Shown: positions 2,094 through 64,000 of the stretch, piece by piece | How the letters are laid out: each line of letters begins with the position of its first letter | Position numbering within the stretch: the first letter of the stretch is position 1 | Source of the DNA: an uncultured bacterium | Lineage (GTDB): Bacteria > Babelota > Babeliae > Babelales > Babelaceae | Assembly: GCA_963848965.1 (NCBI GenBank) | Contig: CAWKFG010000004.1 | Span: 608,001-672,000, forward strand | Direction: 5' to 3' | Length of the DNA stretch: 64,000 bases | Translations under genes and position numbers: made by a program | Notes under the pieces: generated by a model | Told to the model about the DNA's origin: nothing | The model's database searches: none | The model's input: the letters and a program-made list of their open reading frames with translations, nothing else

Positions 2094-3815
2094 TTATACA
2101 AGAAATTGCATACAATGTGAGCATAAATAACTTGATTGATAAGCAAGAGCTTCTTTACGGGTAAGAGAACGAGAGCACAAGGTACATTGTACTTGCTCTT
2201 CATCCGCTTGCTTAGAAGCAGCCTGTTCACATCCTAAGTCTAACATTGAATTATCACCAAAGATAGGTGATGAGGGAAGAGAAAGTAGTGGTTCAGAAGG
2301 AATGAAACCGAGAAGTTGCTCAAGACTCATATCTTTTGCCCACTCTGCTATACCATTTTTTGATTCACCAAGGCCTTTTTTATCAGACAACTCTTTTTCA
2401 TCTATGTTCTCACCTAAAAGCTGTAGTAATTCAATAAATGCAGACTCTTTTAAATTAATACTGTTATGAGCAGAATTAGAGACAACATAAAAACGTTCTT
2501 CTTGGTTTTTATTTATCACCACTGTTATCCAATGAAATGTAGTAAACAAGCAAACACAATATACACCTTTTGAATGGGGATCCTTCATCAATTCTTGCAA
2601 CTTGCTTAAGTTTTCGTTGAGCCCCTGTTCTACTTGCTCTTTGAGCGCCCCATAGGTAAGACGGTCTGCAAAAACAATAAAAAGATCTTTAAAGAGAGCA
2701 TCCGGTTCTACCTGAGTAAAATGGTGTACCAAAGAAGCTATCTCATCACTTGTAAGCAAATTTCCAACTTGACGTTCTTTTATTTTGTTCCATTCACTAT
2801 CTTCAAGCTCTACAGATCCTTTATCTCTTACTGTATGATCGTTTATTGCATTAGCTTCTCCACTTAAAAGGATCGATGTATTGCTTGATAGTTCTGCAAC
2901 TGAGTAAGGAGTAATAATAAAGCGCATCGCAGCTAATTGAGGAAAGTAAGCATTTATAGCATCGTCTGTAGAGAGTTGCTTATAATCAAACTTAGCTTCA
3001 TCTTCCGTTCCAGCATTACGCTTAACCTTATTTTCTATCACCTTCTTTAATATAAGGCGAATTTCATGCTCTGCCAATTGTACAGATTGAGCTTTTAACA
3101 AGCCATTACAAATACTATGATCAAGAAAGAACACTTCATTAAATTCCTTAAAAATAGAATCAAATTTCAAACGTTCTCTTACTCCATCGCTTATACATTC
3201 TGCTAAATAAGATTTCACGTTACCTATAACATGACGAAACGCCTCTATTACAGGATCTTGGTTTTCAAAAGCAACTGCACCCTCGTTAAAAGCAAGAGTA
3301 TATCCTCTCTCTACTTTTTGAGCACCCTTCAAACTCAGCAAAAGGCGATTACACACAAAATTTGCCAGCATTTTTCTTTTTCTAGCTTTAGCGATAATGT
3401 TTCTCCAAGCAGCTCTTCTGTCTAAACACATAACCTTTATTAAAGGCACGTTTGTTAACATAGTAGCAAGCGTAGAGCATGACTGTTGCCCTTTTAAAAA
3501 ATTGGCAATCGAAACACCATTTAACAGTGCTGTATAACCACAGCTTAAATCCTCTTGAGAAGCGGTAAATTGATCTGTAACTCTTATCTGTACCGCATTG
3601 TTATGCTGATCAAGAAAAAGATTGTTTCTCTTAAATTCTTCTACCGCAGCTGCCAGAGATAAGTGCACTGTACCAGCAGGTTCTTCATGAGATGATTTCT
3701 GCGGCTCTATTTCAATAACTTCTTCTATTTTACGCTTACGAGACTCCTTTTCAACTTCCATACCATACACAGGAAGAGTTAAAAAGAGTATACCGAGTAT
3801 CTTATTTACATTCAT
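2094..3815 (-). CDS. Secreted putative papain-like cysteine protease with C-terminal zinc finger
   Basis: Signal peptide then GME; QEDLSCGY, HWITVV and VVSNS motifs; CTLC..CSHC at the C-terminus; AGGAG upstream of ATG 3815. Confidence 0.5.
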   Translation of the reverse strand: MNVNKILGILFLTLPVYGMEVEKESRKRKIEEVIEIEPQKSSHEEPAGTVHLSLAAAVEEFKRNNLFLDQHNNAVQIRVTDQFTASQEDLSCGYTALLNGVSIANFLKGQQSCSTLATMLTNVPLIKVMCLDRRAAWRNIIAKARKRKMLANFVCNRLLLSLKGAQKVERGYTLAFNEGAVAFENQDPVIEAFRHVIGNVKSYLAECISDGVRERLKFDSIFKEFNEVFFLDHSICNGLLKAQSVQLAEHEIRLILKKVIENKVKRNAGTEDEAKFDYKQLSTDDAINAYFPQLAAMRFIITPYSVAELSSNTSILLSGEANAINDHTVRDKGSVELEDSEWNKIKERQVGNLLTSDEIASLVHHFTQVEPDALFKDLFIVFADRLTYGALKEQVEQGLNENLSKLQELMKDPHSKGVYCVCLFTTFHWITVVINKNQEERFYVVSNSAHNSINLKESAFIELLQLLGENIDEKELSDKKGLGESKNGIAEWAKDMSLEQLLGFIPSEPLLSLPSSPIFGDNSMLDLGCEQAASKQADEEQVQCTLCSRSLTRKEALAYQSSYLCSHCMQFLV

Positions 3816-3941
3816 TGACAAACTCCTATAATCTACTTCACCAGCGGCAAAGTACTCAGAAAGCAAATTTAACATGTATAATAGTATTATCTAATAAGGC
3901 AAAATTGTCAAGAAGGCCACTTAGTCAAAGTATATGATTTA

Positions 3942-4613
3942 CTAATTTGCAAACTTCTGCGAGTCCACGTTTGCACACGTGCCCTCCTGTTGCACTTCTA
4001 ATGGGTTACGCATTACCGCTTGCGACTGTTGAGGAACACATACTGAAAGGCGATTAATAATAGCCTCAATCGCAAGTGCTTTATTATGCTTTAAAATACG
4101 GTCATAGCGAGTTAAACTAGCATAAAGATCTTTTATACCTGAACAACAGGTAACTGCTCCAATACTTGCTAAAAGCCATTTTACTATGAGAGAACCATAC
4201 GTATGGTTCTCTAAAATAGTTACAGTCGTAGGAGCTGTAGATTCTGCTCCTTCTGCTGCCGGAACTTCGGAAGAGACCGTATGAGCAACAGAAAAGGTAC
4301 CTGCTTTAAAAAACTGGCGGCTCATGAGTGCAGCAGCCGCTCCTAACACAAGCTTAAAACTTCCTTTCAGCAAACGAACACTGTCAGAAAGGGTAAACTG
4401 CTTTTGCATCTCTCCATAAGTCTTATTGGTATTATCACATGCAAGCTTTACATATTTGGACTTATCATCTAAGCACAAAATAAAGTGCGGGATAAACAAT
4501 CTTTGCAATTTAGATGGCTCTCCATCATTAATTGCCTCTTCAATAGGATCATAAATACCTACTATTCGCACACTATATGCTATTATTAATCCCACTAATA
4601 CGATTCTTTTCAT
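3942..4613 (-). CDS. Exported hypothetical protein with hydrophobic hairpin (paralog family A)
   Basis: Signal peptide; IEEAI..EPSKL, KSKYVKLA, two hydrophobic segments, KALAIE. Confidence 0.7.
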   Translation of the reverse strand: MKRIVLVGLIIAYSVRIVGIYDPIEEAINDGEPSKLQRLFIPHFILCLDDKSKYVKLACDNTNKTYGEMQKQFTLSDSVRLLKGSFKLVLGAAAALMSRQFFKAGTFSVAHTVSSEVPAAEGAESTAPTTVTILENHTYGSLIVKWLLASIGAVTCCSGIKDLYASLTRYDRILKHNKALAIEAIINRLSVCVPQQSQAVMRNPLEVQQEGTCANVDSQKFAN

Positions 4614-5652: not shown

Positions 5653-7050
5653 GTGACTTTCTCTCTCCAATGAATTGAAGAGCATCAATGAAGATGCAGG
5701 TGAGATTCGTAGATCATATGCCAATCAAGGTTAAAAGACTTTGATTGCAAGACTACAGGGCTAGCCACATGCCCACTACTCTCATTACTAAGAGATACAT
5801 ACTTCTTGAGTATATTTAACGCTCCATTACAATCTGCCTGCATTTGCCATCCACACGTACACTTATACCATCCTCTTCCTTTTCTTTGGCTCTTGGACAC
5901 CTTACCGCAAGCGTAACAAGTTTTAGAAGTATAAGCTTCATTTACAGTTATCACTTTTATGCCTAAGCAAGCGGCTTTATACGTAATCATATGCTTTATC
6001 TTTGCATAAGCCCATGCATGTAAACGCTGATTAAGGCGATGGCCCCAATCGATACGTTCTCTTATACCGGTAACGTCTCCTACTACTATAGTATCAACAC
6101 TTGAATTATAGCACTGCATAACAAAATGCTTTGTAATCATATGAAGCATATGGTCTATCTGCCCCTCTTCTTTATGCGCAACTTGAGCGAACCTTTTACT
6201 CTTTCTTTTGCCTTTAGAAGGAGGTTTTAGGCTTGCTCTTACTTTTTGCCAATACCTACGGATAGACTTTACGAACATGCCTTTATAGAGCAGAGCTGTA
6301 CCATCATCAAAGACTGCTGTAATTAAATAAGTCTCACCGAGATCTACAGCTACTGTACGAGAGCCAAGAGGTTGACAAGCGTTAATGTAAACCACTAGAT
6401 GGGCACAGAGTCCATTATTTTTATCGTAAGTGAGTACTACATTAATAACTTTTGTAAACGTAATATCTTTACGCATGGCAAGCTTAAGGTCTAGATGCTT
6501 AATGCCATCATCTCGCTTTGTACCTAAGCTTATAGTAAGTACATCATCTTCTAAGGTAAAACCAAAACCATTATGGTAACGTAAAGGAGAATAAGAATTT
6601 TTAGGACGAAAGCTAGGTTGTTGATGCTGAGTATATCCTTTAGCCTTAAGAGCCATAAAACTTTTATGTGCTTGAATAACCTCATCACGAGTAGCTTGTG
6701 TAGAATGAGAATAGTAAGCCTTGCAGGCAGGCAAGAGCTTAAGACAAGCATTGAGATCTTTACGGCTAGGCTTACAATTACCTTGACGGATATGCCAAAG
6801 GAGACCATTGTATACCTTAGTAGCATACCACAGAGCTCCCTTTACTATGCACTCAGTATAAGCATTTGTTTCTATCTTTGCTACAATAGTTAATAAAGGC
6901 ATAACTTTCTCCTCAATCTTTAGTATAACTTAAGAGCGAGTTCTTGCAACTGCCTTGCGCCTGGAAGGCGCTCGCCTTGCCTGTCCGCCATAACTTTAGT
7001 GAAGGCTGGATATCTCCCCTATAAATAGAGGTGGATTACGGCAAATTCTC
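5653..7050 (-). mobile_element. Solo-tnpB IS200/IS605-group (IS1341-like) element
   Basis: tnpB without tnpA. Left-end hairpin at about 7014-7035, preceded on the minus strand by TTTA. Right end gaatctcac...gagagaaagtcac. Boundaries are inferred. Confidence 0.6.
5685..6902 (-). CDS. tnpB: RNA-guided endonuclease TnpB (rearranged RuvC-II type)
   Basis: VAVDLG, IVVGD, NEAYTSKTCYACG, CTCG zinc finger, ADCNGALNI. Confidence 0.9.
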   Translation of the reverse strand: MPLLTIVAKIETNAYTECIVKGALWYATKVYNGLLWHIRQGNCKPSRKDLNACLKLLPACKAYYSHSTQATRDEVIQAHKSFMALKAKGYTQHQQPSFRPKNSYSPLRYHNGFGFTLEDDVLTISLGTKRDDGIKHLDLKLAMRKDITFTKVINVVLTYDKNNGLCAHLVVYINACQPLGSRTVAVDLGETYLITAVFDDGTALLYKGMFVKSIRRYWQKVRASLKPPSKGKRKSKRFAQVAHKEEGQIDHMLHMITKHFVMQCYNSSVDTIVVGDVTGIRERIDWGHRLNQRLHAWAYAKIKHMITYKAACLGIKVITVNEAYTSKTCYACGKVSKSQRKGRGWYKCTCGWQMQADCNGALNILKKYVSLSNESSGHVASPVVLQSKSFNLDWHMIYESHLHLH

Positions 7051-29609: not shown

Positions 29610-30925
29610 CAAAAAATAAACGAGAATTCTCCTACTTCTGTAAGTAGGAGATGAATCGTAAGAAACATTAACACCCTTTGCAGTATTCTTTTCATGAGGT
29701 ATATTTATAGTTATAGAGCATTATCATAATCATTATAGGAGAGGCAATCTATAATGAAAACGTATAACAAGACCTATAAGATGAGGTTACTGCCTAACAA
29801 AGAGCAAAAAAGCTTCTTTGCTCAAACTTTTGGTTGTGTACGTTTTATTTGGAATAAACTTCTTGAACATGCTAACAATTCCTATAAAGAGCATGGTAAA
29901 GCGCACTTTATTACGCCAGCCTCTTTCAAACAAGAATTCTCTTGGCTTAAAGAAGTAGATAGCTTGGCATTAGCTAATGTTTGGCTTTTTCTTAAACAGG
30001 CATTTACTTCTTACTTTGAAGGTATTACCCAGTATCCTCGCTTTAAAAGAAAAGATACTGCAAAACAAAGCTATACAACAAATAATCAAGAAGCATCACA
30101 AGCTATTCGTATTGAAGGTACCTTTATCCGACTGCCAAAAGTAGGCTTTGTTAAGATAATTATGCATAGGCAGATAAAGCCTCATGAAAAGATAAAAAGA
30201 TGTACGGTAACACAAACAGCATCTGGTAATTATTATATAAGCATCACTGTTGAAGGTATATCTTACCAAGAGGTACTACCAATAGCTTTAGATAAAGTAC
30301 TAGGATTAGATTATTCAATGACTTCTTTATACGTAAGTAGTGAGGGTGAGAGAGCCAATTACCCAAGATACTACCGTAAAGCAGAAGAGAAACTTGTAAA
30401 GCTGTGCCAATCTCTTTCTCGTAAAGTAAAAGGAAGTAAAAACTGGCATAAAGCACGCCGTAAGTTAGCCATATTTTATGAGTATATAGCTTTTCTCCGC
30501 CATGATTTCTTGCATAAGTTAAGCTTTATGTTAGCCAAAAAGTATGATGCTATCATTATAGAAGACTTAGATATGCATGCTATGAGTCAAGCATTAAACT
30601 TTGGTAAATCGGTAGGGGACAACGGCTGGGGTAAGTTTGTTACACTGTTAGGCTATAAGCTTGCAGAAAGAGGCAAACAGCTTATAAAGATAGACAAATG
30701 GTTTCCTTCATCAAAGATGTGTTCTTCATGCGGTAGTATAAAAGAAAGTCTAGCGTTATCAGAAAGATGGTATAATTGCCAGCATTGCGGGTACTCTCAA
30801 GACAGAGATATCAATGCTGCTAGAAATATTAGAACCGTGGGGATCACGGGGATAGCCTAATCAATATCCTGAGGTTGCTTAGGAGTTCTTAGGAAGCCAC
30901 CACCTCTTAGGTGGAGGTAGTTCAC
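29610..30925 (+). mobile_element. Solo-tnpB IS200/IS605-group element
   Basis: Left-end hairpin tctcctactt-ctgt-aagtaggaga (29628-29651) after TTTAA; right-end hairpin ccacct-ctt-aggtgg ending in TTCAC at 30925; no tnpA. Confidence 0.8.
29754..30860 (+). CDS. tnpB: RNA-guided endonuclease TnpB (canonical D-E-D RuvC)
   Basis: HTH_OrfB-like N-terminus (TFGCVRFIWN), GLDY, IIEDL, FPSSKMCSSCG, CQHCG, DRDINAA. Confidence 0.95.
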   Translation: MKTYNKTYKMRLLPNKEQKSFFAQTFGCVRFIWNKLLEHANNSYKEHGKAHFITPASFKQEFSWLKEVDSLALANVWLFLKQAFTSYFEGITQYPRFKRKDTAKQSYTTNNQEASQAIRIEGTFIRLPKVGFVKIIMHRQIKPHEKIKRCTVTQTASGNYYISITVEGISYQEVLPIALDKVLGLDYSMTSLYVSSEGERANYPRYYRKAEEKLVKLCQSLSRKVKGSKNWHKARRKLAIFYEYIAFLRHDFLHKLSFMLAKKYDAIIIEDLDMHAMSQALNFGKSVGDNGWGKFVTLLGYKLAERGKQLIKIDKWFPSSKMCSSCGSIKESLALSERWYNCQHCGYSQDRDINAARNIRTVGITGIA

Positions 30926-59772: not shown

Positions 59773-60860
59773 TGCATAAGATACTTGTACTTGGAAGTGC
59801 AACACAAGATATTTTTATTATGTATGAAGGTGCAGAAACTCTGCACCTTCAATCAAAAAAGGGCTCTCGCTCTTTTTTGATTTTAGAAGCTGGCATCAAA
59901 GCTAATGTGGAACAGCTTTTTTATGCAACCGGAGGAGGAGCTACAAATACTGCTGTCTCTTTTAAACGGCTTGGCTTACAAGCTATTCCTTGCTTTAAAC
60001 TAGGAACTGACACTGCAGGTACTTTTATTGTAGAATCGCTTAAAAAAGAAAATCTTGATCTTTCTCATATTAGTACCTCATCTACTGTTGATACTGCACG
60101 CTCCTTTATTATTCCTACACCTGAAAAGAATCATGCAGCACTCTGTTACCGAGGAGCCCAGACAGGACTTACTCACCACGATATACCATTTGAAAGTTTA
60201 CATACCTATCGCTGCCTCTACATCTCATCACTTTCTGGAAGTTCTTTACAGCTTTTACCAACTATTGCTCAAAAGGCCAAAAAGCTTGGTATTCTTGTTG
60301 CTACTAATCCAGGAGTTCAACAAATTACAAGTGAACATGCTGAGCTTTTTAGAGCACTTTCTTCTCTTGATATTCTTATTTTGAATGCTCATGAAGCACG
60401 ACTTTTTATGGAAGCACTCCTTAATCAGGTAACCATACAAGGAACTTCTTCTACAGACGCTTCATTACCCCCTCTTTTGCACTTTTTTATTGAATATAAA
60501 AGTGTTCGCTATTCACTTTTTGATTATTTTAAAGTACTTATATCGCGAGGGGTAGGTACAGTAATAGTAACTGATGGAGTTCGCGGAGTATATGTAGGAA
60601 CAGCGTCCGCTGTTTATTTTCATCCAAGTATTCCTACTTCTGTTCTTACTGCAGTAGGAGCAGGAGATGCTTTTGGTTCTAGCTTTGTAGGATCACTCAT
60701 TGTAGGAAAATCCCTTGAAGAAGCATTAGTATCTGGGGTAATTAATGCATCATCTGTTATAAGCTATGTAGATACAAAAACAGGATTACTTTCTTTGAAA
60801 GAGCTTGAAACTCGAGTAAGAGAGCTAGGATTTACACAACTCCAAAAATTTGCATTATAA
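59772..60860 (+). CDS. PfkB-family carbohydrate kinase
   Basis: GGGATN.AV...RLG, LG.D.AG, VTDG..G, VGAGDAFGS. Confidence 0.88.
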   Translation: MHKILVLGSATQDIFIMYEGAETLHLQSKKGSRSFLILEAGIKANVEQLFYATGGGATNTAVSFKRLGLQAIPCFKLGTDTAGTFIVESLKKENLDLSHISTSSTVDTARSFIIPTPEKNHAALCYRGAQTGLTHHDIPFESLHTYRCLYISSLSGSSLQLLPTIAQKAKKLGILVATNPGVQQITSEHAELFRALSSLDILILNAHEARLFMEALLNQVTIQGTSSTDASLPPLLHFFIEYKSVRYSLFDYFKVLISRGVGTVIVTDGVRGVYVGTASAVYFHPSIPTSVLTAVGAGDAFGSSFVGSLIVGKSLEEALVSGVINASSVISYVDTKTGLLSLKELETRVRELGFTQLQKFAL

Positions 60861-60902: not shown

Positions 60903-60980
60903 ATACACTTAGTTACTGGTATTTTCTTGTAAATTATAACACTTACTGTTATAAATTATAACAGTAAGTGTTACTTTTTT
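60903..60980 (+). repeat. Promoter/operator module, copy B (inverted relative to 21-98)
   Basis: Perfect 18-bp arms at 60937-60954 and 60956-60973; TTGTAA-N17-TATAAA; aligns to copy A. Confidence 0.7.
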
Positions 60981-60997: not shown

Positions 60998-62998
60998 TTA
61001 CATCACTGATGTAAGCCACTCAATATATCTTTCTCGTTTTTGTGGATCTCCGAACCACCAGTCATTTTTACCTTTAACAAGTTTGAAGGTGCGATGGAAT
61101 GTATGATCATCTTGTTCAATGAGGCCTACATGATAGTTGGTAAATTCACCATTGGTTTCTTCTTCTAAGTGTGCTGGTCGTTCAAAGTGAGTAGCAATAA
61201 TACACATACTTTCTGGTATATGTGCTATAGCTTTACCAAATCTATGAAGACGAACAGAGCCTTCTGCTTCCATAGTACCCTTAAATACTTCATCCATAAC
61301 AGTAAAGCTCAGTTGCCCTTCCTTAAGTCCTGTAAGTACAGCAAGTGTTTCGTCAACACGCTTTTTCTCAGCCATAAAGGTAGATTGACCTACAGCAAGA
61401 TCTTCTTTAATGTTAGCATAGCTATTAAGCTTGTTAAAGATTGTTATACGAGCTTTACGTGCAGGAGCTATGCCAAACGTCTGTGCTAGAATCATTGAAT
61501 ATGCTACGGATTTCATGAAGGTAGATTTACCGCCACCATGAGGGCCTGTAAGCATAATGTTATGAGCATGTTCTGGTTTGCCAAAGGTGATAGTCTCTGT
61601 AACTGCTAACTTGCTATCAAGCAACGGATTCCATACATTAACAAGCTCTACATACGGAGTTTTATTGTCTACAAACTCTACAAAAGAAAACTCTACTCTC
61701 TTATCTTTATGCTCTTTTATGACATGAGCAACAGATAGATATGCTTCTAACTCACCCGCAGCTTCAAGTATATCAACAAAGAGATCTTTAACTTCATGAA
61801 GTAGCGTGTGAGCGGCAAGTACTTTTCCTAAATTAGAGTACCATTGTGCTTTATGTTCAAATACAGGATCATTCAGTAACGTTATAAGCTTGTCTAAATC
61901 ACCTGAAAGACGATACGGATTCTCTATAAATATCTCTAACTTCTTAAATGCTTTAATACCTGCAATAAGACCTTTGTGCGGAGAGACTACTTCATATATC
62001 TTTGTTAAAGCACCTATAATCTCTCTTATACTCCGCATACGTTCATGAAGAGTATACGTTATGTAGTTAGTAAGTTTAACTTCATCATGCAATTTCTTCA
62101 GCATAAAAATGCCTAATGCATCAGCAATGCCTCCGACACCCAAAGAAAAGAGAGTTGCACCAAGAGGAGAAAAAGCTTTCACAGACCTCTCTCTAAAAGT
62201 GTAATTAGCTGCATCGTACGTAGTTTCTGTACGTCTTGCGAAAAATGGATAAACGTGCAAGAAAGCCATACCTGCTAAGAATTCTACAGTAGCTAAGCCA
62301 GCTCCTACTAAATTAAGTGTTCTTACTGTTTGTAAGGCGCCTGGCTTTGTGTTAAATCGGGAAAACCAGCCTTTAGGAAAATAAACGCGCATAGTAAGCA
62401 TAGGATCTAACTGAGCAGAAGGGCCCCACAGATGGAGAAGGTTGCTTTCATGTTCTCCTATAAGTTTGAAAGCATTATTCAAAGATTCTGCAGTATGTTT
62501 ATTGTCTATGAGTGTTTTCACCATGTTTTGCCGTTGGGTTAATAGAGCCTTATCTACTTGAGGTTCTGCAATCATACGAGCGAGAACTGCTGAACCAAAA
62601 GTAGTTTGAGTTTTATTAACTTGAGAGAATAAGTTGAGCTTCTTGCTATTTTCGGATCCGCAAATAACGTTCAACTCATGTAATACATATGGCTCAATAA
62701 CATTTACTGTTTTTTGTAATTGTCCTTGACGTGCAAGCAAATTGAATACAATTTCTTTCTTATGATTAGAGCTTAGAGGCTTGATCATCTCACTGACCTT
62801 CTCTTTATCACTCTTTTCTTCTTTCTTTTCACCTTGCGTAGTAAGTACTGGCTTTACTACATGATCTTCTGCTTCTAGGACCAAATTACCAACGGTGATA
62901 TACAACGATTCAGGCTTTGAGCTTTCTTCATTTTCACAAAAACTAATAGCGCTCCACAAGAGAGTCGTCCATACTACACTTTGTAATCTCTGTAACAT
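60998..62998 (-). CDS. Second stand-alone MutS-like ATPase with signal peptide and TM segments
   Basis: GGAGG RBS before ATG 62998; NKTQTTFG, TGPHGGGKST, STFMAE, DEVFKGT, ATHF. Confidence 0.85.
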   Translation of the reverse strand: MLQRLQSVVWTTLLWSAISFCENEESSKPESLYITVGNLVLEAEDHVVKPVLTTQGEKKEEKSDKEKVSEMIKPLSSNHKKEIVFNLLARQGQLQKTVNVIEPYVLHELNVICGSENSKKLNLFSQVNKTQTTFGSAVLARMIAEPQVDKALLTQRQNMVKTLIDNKHTAESLNNAFKLIGEHESNLLHLWGPSAQLDPMLTMRVYFPKGWFSRFNTKPGALQTVRTLNLVGAGLATVEFLAGMAFLHVYPFFARRTETTYDAANYTFRERSVKAFSPLGATLFSLGVGGIADALGIFMLKKLHDEVKLTNYITYTLHERMRSIREIIGALTKIYEVVSPHKGLIAGIKAFKKLEIFIENPYRLSGDLDKLITLLNDPVFEHKAQWYSNLGKVLAAHTLLHEVKDLFVDILEAAGELEAYLSVAHVIKEHKDKRVEFSFVEFVDNKTPYVELVNVWNPLLDSKLAVTETITFGKPEHAHNIMLTGPHGGGKSTFMKSVAYSMILAQTFGIAPARKARITIFNKLNSYANIKEDLAVGQSTFMAEKKRVDETLAVLTGLKEGQLSFTVMDEVFKGTMEAEGSVRLHRFGKAIAHIPESMCIIATHFERPAHLEEETNGEFTNYHVGLIEQDDHTFHRTFKLVKGKNDWWFGDPQKRERYIEWLTSVM

Positions 62999-63064
62999 TC
63001 TGTCCTCCACAGTCTTAATCCATTGTCTTTCTTCTAGAATATCCAAAAGCACATTTTATGCAAA

Positions 63065-63548
63065 AGCTACGCATCTCTGCATTCACACAAGCTGCTTATT
63101 AGGGGCTTTGCCCCTCTAACCCCAGCAAGGGCACACCCTTGCAACCAGCTCTCTTTGCTCAGAGCTTCCGCTCTTCGCTGGTTCTTTTAAAGCAAAAAAT
63201 CGGTGCGATTTTTTGCAGTTGCACGCCGCTACGCGAGTCTCCATCCCAGGTGGAACGCACCTGGTCTGACGACACTCTGTTTACAGAGATATCATTGATA
63301 TGAAATTACCAAAGGGTAAAACGTGAGTCGGTGACAGGCAACCAGGGAGTTCCCCTGGTTGCTTAAATCGCGTAGCGACTGCTATTGTTAAAAAACGCTG
63401 TGCGTTTTTTAACGCAGAAAGAAAACAAAAAGAAGTAAAAGGGTCCAGGGGTAAGCCCCTGGCAGGGTTAAAGGGACAGAGTCCCTTACAGTTGGAGCCC
63501 CCGGTGAGTGCAAGGCTCCTAGAGATCGCTTGCAATAGATGCGAAGGC
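63065..63548. other. Highly structured, dyad-symmetric non-coding element (ncRNA or MITE-like)
   Basis: More than 10 hairpins arranged as two inverted, diverged units with long-range complementary segments; GC-richer than the flanks. Confidence 0.7.
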
Positions 63549-63608
63549 TCATTATACTGGGTTGTGAAATGTTTAGAGAAAGAACTACAAAAAATAGCTA
63601 GGTATAGT

Positions 63609-64000
63609 ATGTTATCAGAAACTTCATCACGGAATAGCTCTCAAGAGATGAATCAGGCTACTGGAACCATCTTGCAGGTGAGTGGCACCGTTCTTGACGT
63701 TCAGTTTCCGCGTGATGCAGTTCCCAATATATTTAATGAGTTAAAAGTTCTTATTCCACAAGAGCATGATGATACATATAAGACAGCGAGCATCGAAGTA
63801 GAGCAGCAGCTGGGTGACGGTGTTGTACGGTGCATTGCACTTGAGAGCATTTTTGGTATATGTCGTGGCCTTAAGGTGGTTGATACGGGTGGTCCTATTG
63901 AAGTGCCGGTAGGCAATGAAGTGCTAGGACGCGTATTTGATGTACTTGGCAGAACAATTGATGGTAAACCTTCGATTGATGTTAGTAAGCGTATGCCTAT
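63609..64000 (+). CDS. atpD: F1 ATP synthase beta subunit (5' part, runs off the window)
   Basis: GTILQVSGTVLDVQF, EVEQQLGDGVVRCIAL, RGLKVVDTGGPIEVPVG.EVLGRVFDVLG. Confidence 0.93.
   Translation, partial: MLSETSSRNSSQEMNQATGTILQVSGTVLDVQFPRDAVPNIFNELKVLIPQEHDDTYKTASIEVEQQLGDGVVRCIALESIFGICRGLKVVDTGGPIEVPVGNEVLGRVFDVLGRTIDGKPSIDVSKRMP

Follow-up and report, generated by a model that had tools for sequence, protein, structure and literature searches.

The intergenic region at positions 63065-63548 of the window (the whole 64,000-nt stretch of Babelaceae DNA analyzed here) is likely to hold a copy of an old repeat of the MITE/REP-like kind, which is non-coding and non-autonomous. It belongs to a new family of a known kind, distinguished by unusually elaborate ends with two hairpins each and by a core that is both palindromic and mosaic, and it is not a new giant RNA. 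As a previous reading based on the sequence only had noted, the region is placed between divergent genes, one encoding a MutS-domain protein (minus strand) and the other, atpD, the F-type ATPase beta subunit (plus strand). The sequence-only reading had suggested two identities for a dyad-symmetric element of ~480 bp, either an undescribed large structured RNA or a non-autonomous element with ends recognized as single-stranded hairpins by an HUH/rolling-circle type enzyme. Below we discuss the data that led to the present view.

Extent, copies, and composition of the repeat unit

BLAST of the unit against its own genome (G000; 1.73 Mb in five contigs, assembly 88.7% complete) identified nine loci, the window copy and eight others. 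Homology among the copies begins and ends at ~63098 and ~63489, and hence the repeat unit corresponds to window positions 63098-63489 and is ~390 bp long, not 480 bp. An outer pairing between 63070-63076 and 63537-63543, which had been taken to close the element, is due to chance. It is located in unique flanking DNA common to no other copy, its right arm lies inside a promoter-like site for atpD, and 700 bp of sequence contain 39 such short inverted pairs in total.

Five of the nine copies are full-length and collinear with pairwise identities of 81-89%. Another two are full-length but rearranged (~72% identical), and the last two are truncated, one consisting of the left half only and the other being a fragment. 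The full copies are 382-407 bp long, and the GC content of the element is 48-51% vs 34-38% for the five contigs. No ORF is conserved among the copies; the longest stop-free stretches cover 38-81 amino acids and differ in strand and frame. Moreover, no two of the nine copies are identical and therefore there is no sign of recent movement in this genome, where the copies probably are immobile now.

Plasmid and phage collections gave no BLAST match to the unit. Scans with the exact patterns of two of the hairpins returned 9 loci in genome contigs, 11 in metagenome contigs and 0 in viral contigs, and in every case the match was limited to the hairpin itself. One DNA sequencing run of small share (X1) contains a contig of 151 nt that matches 63071-63221 exactly, together with a piece of 36 nt located at 63594-63629, and no contig in this material spans the element.

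Anatomy of the window copy

The unit (63098-63489) is an inverted dimer of two half-units, each ~190 bp long. To describe its ends, a covariance model (R1) was made from the end module alone (16 modules, 55 positions and 13 pairs). Two inverted R1 matches bound the window unit, at G000:C4:671098-671152(+) and 671435-671489(-). The left terminal module (63098-63152, plus strand; 70.1 bits), which is kept in other genera, carries hairpin 1 (63101-63115), the linker TAACCCC and hairpin 2 (63125-63142). The right terminal module is inverted (63435-63489, minus strand; 69.0 bits) and has hairpin 2′ (63445-63462), the linker GGGTTAA and hairpin 1′ (63472-63486). By repeat finding, the left and right modules form inverted arms of 46 nt with 72% complementarity (63101-63146 and 63441-63486). 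Seven of the nine copies have inverted R1 modules at both ends, the remaining two being truncated, and in its own genome R1 detects exactly the 16 known ends together with two weak half-matches.

The hairpins listed in the sequence-only reading are all present where it had placed them, and repeat finding confirmed the stems of 11, 12, and 10 bp. Following the left module is a small hairpin, AGAGC-TTCC-GCTCT (63161-63174), which occurs in A-type half-units only and is absent from the right half; across the full copies 92% of its cells are paired, with no double change. Next is the left A/T-run hairpin (63192-63216) with a perfect 11-bp stem. This stem is perfect in nine of the ten A-type half-units and shows one compensated change from G:C to A:T. 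The left mini-hairpin CGC-TAC-GCG (63227-63235) has counterparts in other half-units, where local pairing is kept in the variants TCCC-nnn-GGGA and TCGC-TCC-GCGA. The inner "alpha" hairpin CCAGGTG-GAACG-CACCTGG (63246-63264) has a conserved loop, GAACG or GAACA, and stem variants among the copies (AGGGGTG, AGGGGAG, AGAGGTG, and GAGGGTG), each with a matching 3′ arm. The asymmetric centre (63275-63320) contains three weak small palindromes and is the most variable stretch of the copy alignment. Of the three central hairpins in the sequence-only reading, the outer two were counted across the copies and are weakly supported, with pairing in 85% and 94% of the cells and a single double change between them.

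On the right side, the inner "beta" hairpin GCAACCAGGG-AGTTC-CCCTGGTTGC (63338-63362; 10-bp stem) is homologous to the alpha hairpin. It is followed by the right mini-hairpin TCGC-GTA-GCGA (63368-63378), as defined by the half-unit alignment, and by the right A/T-run hairpin (63387-63413), the perfect 12-bp stem of which is invariant in the five full copies. The exact 10-nt complement between 63227-63236 and 63368-63377 was also confirmed by repeat finding. Instead of forming a long-range pairing, each side is better read as a local mini-hairpin (TCGC-TAC-GCGA here, TCCC-nnn-GGGA elsewhere).

Half-units and mosaic copies

Splitting the copies at the centre and reverse-complementing the right part gave 16 homologous half-units. 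Outermost in each is hairpin 1 (AGGGRC-nnn-GYCCCT), then the linker (T)TAACCC(C) and then hairpin 2, which varies in sequence (GCAAGGG, CCAGGGG, CTAGGGCC, CTGGGGT, GCAGAGG, and others). From the outside to the inside, the interior consists of the extra small hairpin (one type only), the A/T-run hairpin of 11-12 bp, the mini-hairpin (TCGC-TAC-GCGA or TCCC-nnn-GGGA) and the inner hairpin with its conserved GAAC loop in the alpha or beta form. The terminal module of ~50 nt at each end can be written T-A/G-AGGGRC-nnn-GYCCCT, (T)TAACCC, and a second hairpin of variable sequence.

The copies are mosaics of these parts. Five have the build A-alpha...beta-B. In c43 and c551 the centre is inverted such that beta is found on the opposite side and adjoins the A outer part; the centre of c43 is 82% identical to that of c353 over 248 nt in reverse and 73% if aligned collinearly. 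Since c43 and c551 are 84% identical, the flipped-centre form has itself been copied. Yet another copy, c268, is A-alpha joined to its own reverse complement. Several ends also have outward motifs in common, namely AACTRTR, CTGCTTAGCT, GCTAGTMAG, and a GCT[ACG] located 7-27 nt outside hairpin 1. In this genome, these motifs yield no single boundary and no duplication.

Pairing and covariation

Folded as a single strand, the 484 nt reach -206 kcal/mol on the plus strand and -213 kcal/mol on the minus strand, corresponding to z = -9.4 and -10.8 relative to dinucleotide shuffles, of which 0/100 were as good. Together with the complementarity of the inverted arms, this shows that the reported dyad symmetry, with stems that remain paired despite sequence differences, is real.

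Covariation was analyzed in two alignments. In the 16 half-units, the three shared hairpins (17 pairs) have 98.9% of their cells paired and 10 pairs with double changes, and 0/500 shuffles were as high; among the 272 cells, two are G-U and three are unpaired. In the five full copies, the 83 pairs of the local hairpins have 97.1% of cells paired and 8 pairs with double changes (0/500 shuffles as high by covariation score and 1/500 by count of pairs). The 49 left-right pairs of the helices predicted by RNAalifold have 92.6% of cells paired and three double-change pairs, and show no covariation in that 424/500 shuffles scored as high. Hence, the covariation expected by the sequence-only reading is present in the local stems and absent from the long-range left-right pairing. 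Because the local stems co-vary and the left-right helices do not, it is the local hairpins that are maintained and not a giant panhandle. Moreover, stem columns are variable about half as often as other columns (18.8% vs 34.6%), and the pairwise difference is 9.4% in stem columns vs 18.2% in the others.

The very low folding energy and the co-varying local stems are what would be expected of a large structured RNA, as proposed before, which would here be a non-coding RNA gene in several paralogous copies. Several features argue against this, and we consider it highly improbable. The stems are strictly Watson-Crick with almost no G-U (also in the larger module set discussed below), and the two strands fold and pair equally well, and consequently the structure is not assignable to an RNA from one strand. 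In addition to the lack of covariation in the long-range helices, the sequence is a nine-copy repeat with isoforms: copies are truncated or centre-inverted, and occur in both orientations relative to neighboring genes. Two promoter-like sites were flagged (shuffle mean 0.9). One, TTGCAA-17-TATACT at 63530-63558, would serve atpD and lies outside the unit, while the other is a 9-of-12 match inside the variable centre. An Rfam scan of 62000-64000, a check that the sequence-only reading had itself put forward, gave no family at gathering score. The three best matches cover one hairpin each with 25.2, 24.3, and 18.5 bits, where the cut-offs are 38, 50, and 58, respectively.

Compensated stems had been taken as a sign of selection on structure. 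This is one possible cause, and replication template switching is an equally good one. In two reports, template switching in inverted repeats is described to make stems perfect, to introduce multi-base compensatory changes in one event, and to leave spacers inverted (PMC8794818; PMC8604942). Template switching is a non-selective route to the same compensated-stem pattern. In our copies, loops are found reverse-complemented relative to one another; in hairpin 2 this concerns AA/TT as well as TTA/TAA, and in the A/T-run hairpin it concerns TCA/TGA. The perfection of the stems might be kept by a process acting on the DNA, namely template switching or conversion within a hairpin. Alternatively, or also, it might be kept by selection for a role of the hairpins at gene ends, in termination or 3′-end protection.

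The end module in related genomes

BLAST of the unit matched none of 40 relatives (0/40). Against 260 other genomes of the order, with two candidates per genome scored, one genome gave a trivial match over 33 nt. By contrast with BLAST, R1 (E<=0.01) found matches in 8 of 40 other genomes of the family: 47 in G007, which has a 0.9-Mb genome, five each in G054 and G022, and one or two each in G017, G052, G051, G009, and G019. In a draw of 150 genomes from the order (E<=1e-4), G096 (two matches, best E 2e-10) and G159 (one match), which represent two other families, were also identified as sporadic carriers.

In these other genera the module occurs in inverted pairs 210-340 bp apart or alone, and the cores of the elements are unrelated. 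The G007 matches form inverted pairs, from which 17 elements of 208-336 bp were extracted. At both ends these elements read TAAGGGC-nnn-GCCCTT-(T)AACCC followed by hairpin 2, and their cores are unlike those in the own genome of the window copy. The G054 elements have the same build with inner hairpins that are different again, and G096 carries a solo module. The proposal of a non-autonomous element is supported in kind: the repeat has several copies, which are non-coding and located between genes, and the inverted modules at its ends also bound elements with other contents in other genera.

For 51 modules from four genomes, 99.4% of cells are paired, 11 of 13 pairs have double changes and 2/641 cells are G-U, where the pairing figure is biased upward because the model used to select and align the matches itself favors paired positions. 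In hairpin 2, all seven pairs show double changes across the 51 modules. G023, a congener of G007, has no R1 match at E<=0.01; with 0 vs 47 module matches, the copy number differs sharply within the genus.

One insertion can be followed between two genomes. The flanks of an element in G054 are 73% identical to DNA in G022, where an element is found at the same place, and the insertion is accordingly older than the split between the two. The long inner stem is ACCAGCAACAAAGG in G054 (14 bp, perfect) and TACCAGAAACACGAG in G022 (15 bp, perfect), and the A/T-run stem is perfect over 17 bp in G054 and, with another sequence, over 16 bp in G022. The stem of hairpin 2 has 8 bp in G054 and 7 bp in G022, and right hairpin 1, present in G054, is lost in G022. 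Thus, stems are kept perfect in place, even in a copy without two intact ends (G022).

Conceivably, the module is no relic of an ordinary DDE transposon but acts as a signal read by its structure across this order of small-genome bacteria, as the site of a hairpin-specific mobilizing enzyme or as domesticated gene-end punctuation, the palindromes of which would be actively held perfect in place. We regard this as rather unlikely, noting that the orthologous pair fits the idea of gene-end punctuation since all stem changes are compensated even after the loss of one end.

Location at gene ends

All nine copies are intergenic and lie beside ordinary genes, among them brnQ-like, ftsH, rplU, gltX, and ftsY as well as genes for ankyrin-repeat proteins and others. 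Seven of the nine lie 4-81 nt after a stop codon. In each of the six co-directional gene pairs, the distance from the element to the stop of the upstream gene (4-81 nt) is shorter than that to the start of the downstream gene (108-364 nt). A comparable location is seen in G007, where an open frame of at least 60 codons ends within 32 nt of an element end in 17/17 elements; in 3/17 the stop codon is the TAA of the terminal TAAGGGC. Widely spaced G007 module pairs enclose ordinary genes (rplI-dnaB-ruvC, murA, and others) and no transposase. The solo modules in G007 and G096 follow genes. For one unannotated neighbor, the protein atlas gave only hydrolase-like leads.

This location is consistent with a gene-end signal kept by the host, i.e., elements or modules retained as terminators or for 3′-end protection, which can coexist with a mobile origin. 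The perfect stems at the orthologous locus despite the loss of one terminal hairpin and the reduced variability of stem columns point in the same direction, as does the abundance of perfect gene-end hairpins in this genome. Contig C4 alone has 104 perfect hairpins with a stem >=10 bp vs four after shuffling, and the whole genome has 198, of which 21 are within the nine copies. Most of the remaining ones resemble ordinary A-tract/T-tract gene-end hairpins. However, the element hairpins are not followed by T-runs, and one weak terminator-like site was found (shuffle mean 0.8). The window copy and c551 are flanked by divergently transcribed genes, which require no transcript end between them, and the range from 0 to 47 module matches within one genus fits expansion better than host maintenance. 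Taken together, we consider retention by the host as possible, though the less favored reading compared with an old MITE/REP-like repeat.

Candidate mobilizing enzymes and insertion sites

For the preferred reading as a non-autonomous repeat, the terminal module would be the site once recognized by a transposase that was supplied in trans and spread the elements; the gene for this mobilizing transposase may have been lost. The own genome carries four copies of a resident IS5-type IS, which has ends GAGCCTATC... and TNA duplications, a further DDE_Tnp_1 gene, a DDE_3 fragment, IS110-type genes, and TnpB-only genes (eight matches, two of them within the window). No module is found near or at the ends of any of these loci. 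As partner, the IS5-type IS was rejected, its ends GAGCCTATC... being unrelated to the module. No related autonomous IS that shares the ends was found in the own genome, where the end motif and R1 are restricted to the nine copies. As the assembly is 88.7% complete, the partner gene could be missing from the data for this genome. The DDE_3 relic of G007 is likewise without the module. A search for rve gave one sub-threshold match, and a Y2_Tnp search gave 0 matches, with its control silent too.

Mobilization of the HUH/rolling-circle type, the second proposal of the sequence-only reading, would correspond to a REP/REPIN-like scenario, with a Y1 HUH transposase (RAYT or IS200/IS605 TnpA) that recognizes the modules as hairpins of single-stranded DNA and spreads them as inverted doublets. 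Consistent with this, the end hairpins conserve structure and not sequence, as the double changes in hairpin 2 illustrate, and the modules are found solo or as inverted pairs outside genes and beside gene 3′ ends. Moreover, the TnpB genes of the own genome are of the IS200/IS605 family. Other data speak against it. No Y1 transposase (PF01797) was detected in G000 or in G007 (93% complete, with its 47 module matches) by a search that matched 6 of 14 known genomes as positive control. The R1 module is absent from the Y1 loci of G054, G017, and G052, apart from one match at E 0.61 in 18.5 kb. The two ends carry the linker in opposite orientation and hence are true terminal inverted repeats, which differs from IS200/IS605 with left and right ends on the same strand, and the DNA of the element resembles no other locus of its genome, the TnpB loci included. 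In the genomes searched, HUH-type mobilization is therefore unsupported, and we judge it improbable that the family arose in this way.

With respect to the insertion site, IS630/Tc1 type elements generate a TA target duplication, and Correia elements are also associated with a TA duplication. In G007, TA flanks 11/17 left ends and 11/17 right ends, and the direct and inverted readings account for 9/17 each. Since TA is its own complement, it may belong to the inverted repeat as its tip or, instead, be a duplication of 2 bp. In the own genome, TA adjoins 5 of 14 anchored ends, and some ends share extra outward homology. TA beside the ends might represent a target duplication of 2 bp as in IS630/Tc1 elements. 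The two comparisons made yielded no empty site. G023 shares no DNA with the G007 locus, the match being a partial protein with 35% identity, and the sequences on either side of the G054 locus are separated by 8 kb in G005.

Relation to known repeat families

Prokaryotic MITEs are characterized, in a 2024 review, as typically <500 bp long and AT-rich, with terminal inverted repeats and without a transposase gene; their flanking direct repeats wane with age, and examples are the Correia elements of Neisseria, for which inversion is reported, and QMITE1/2 of Coxiella (PMC10969869). Our element is <500 bp and lacks a transposase gene, its 46-nt arms constitute terminal inverted repeats, and it is present as many dispersed intergenic copies (nine here and, as judged by module matches, more in G007). 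Likewise, it is non-coding, has a very stable predicted fold and occurs as size-variable and truncated copies, and its centre-inverted isoforms parallel the inversion of Correia elements. In contrast to typical MITEs, it is not AT-rich but GC-rich relative to the host genome. Its ends are ~50-nt two-hairpin modules, the second hairpin of which is conserved in shape and not in sequence, its core is itself an inverted duplication, and no related IS was found.

With the REP/BIME/REPIN sequences and their RAYT (TnpA-REP) partner, the element shares the extragenic palindromes, which are found near gene 3′ ends as single units or in inverted pairs, and the mosaic combinations of unit types. It differs in that no RAYT/Y1 gene was found to accompany it, each unit has two hairpins joined by a conserved linker, copy numbers are low, with 16 modules in the own genome and 47 matches in G007, and the pairs enclose 150-290 bp of further hairpins. 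A REPIN/RAYT system is not supported, given that no Y1 was detected in G000 and G007 and that the Y1 loci of three relatives are without the module.

In IS200/IS605 elements, the hairpins of both ends lie on the same strand, terminal inverted repeats are lacking, and the transposase is a Y1 TnpA. The IS200/IS605-derived PATE resemble our element in having hairpins at both ends, and TnpB genes are present in the own genome. In our element, however, the ends are true inverted repeats, there is no Y1 TnpA, and there is no similarity to the TnpB loci. A non-autonomous element of the IS200/IS605 type is not supported either, since the orientation of modules and linkers is opposite at the left and right ends and the search for Y1 in the own genome gave no match.

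A role at gene ends, as a terminator or in 3′-end protection, is described for REP, ERIC, and SPRITE. The 2024 review names BOX, RUP, and SPRITE of Streptococcus pneumoniae and ERIC of enterobacteria (PMC10969869), repeats at gene ends for which effects on termination or mRNA decay have been proposed. The modular, mosaic build, the strong predicted hairpins and the gene-end location are common to these repeats and our element. There is no sequence relationship between them, the stems of our element are without a terminator-type T-run, and its family occurs in several genera, in which the ends are conserved and the cores unrelated.

Significance

The candidate "giant structured RNA" is hereby removed, a defined family of repeats taking its place. 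This family has a searchable signature in its end module, described by a covariance model of 55 positions; BLAST missed the unit in all 40 relatives, while the module model finds it in several genera. The results also call for caution, in that covariation in palindromic repeats is no proof of an RNA gene. In this context, the orthologous loci represent a clean natural example of long stems that stay perfectly Watson-Crick, and the family is useful for telling the repair of palindromes by template switching apart from selection that acts on RNA structure. For the bacteria that carry it, the family is a marker for genome dynamics in small, probably host-associated genomes.

Transposase genes of the window and its genome

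Two TnpB-type genes with HTH_OrfB_IS605, OrfB_IS605 and Cas12f1-like TNB domains lie in the window, at 29754-30860 (plus strand) and 5685-6902 (minus strand), and neither is adjoined by a TnpA gene. Across the window's own genome (contigs C1-C5, the window in C4), the TNB domain gave eight matches and Y1_Tnp, the HUH transposase domain of TnpA, none. Four near-identical copies of a ~0.95-kb IS with a DDE_Tnp_1 transposase are found outside the window (C1:120186-121120, C1:401493-402435, C2:5633-6591, and C4:83446-84407), with termini GAGCCTATC... and flanking 3-bp TTA/TAA repeats. This IS looks recently active, in contrast to the ~390-bp hairpin repeat. IS110-type (DEDD) transposase genes are located at C1:386554-386979, C1:397204-397629, C4:451186-451611, and C4:13658-14083, three of the four having identical scores; a repeated region of ~11.9 kb includes C1:385924-397839.

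Hairpins, gene families, and occurrence

Genome-wide there are 198 hairpins whose 10-17-bp stems pair perfectly, and contig C4 has 104 compared with four in shuffled sequence. Outside the hairpin repeat, the majority look like A-tract/T-tract gene-end hairpins; one 17-bp perfect stem (window 60937-60973) lies shortly after an ORF ending at 60860. Ankyrin-repeat genes are numerous, C1:578-610 kb is especially repeat-dense, and several paralogous families of 1.2-1.7-kb genes have P-loop-like motifs (e.g., PRRFGKT), with members at, among others, C1:10450-11729, C4:375431-376710, C1:584043-585320, C1:590344-591622, C4:758431-760092, and C4:869373-871034.

A low-depth, 151-nt contig from soil-metagenome DNA run X1 is identical to window 63071-63221, that is, the left flank and left part of the hairpin repeat. 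In G007, a 0.9-Mb genome of the same family, locus C2:53700-59300 encodes a 566-aa protein (minus-strand ORF 2562-4262 of the locus) that contains a UCH (ubiquitin C-terminal hydrolase) domain, a eukaryote-like feature consistent with life in association with a host.
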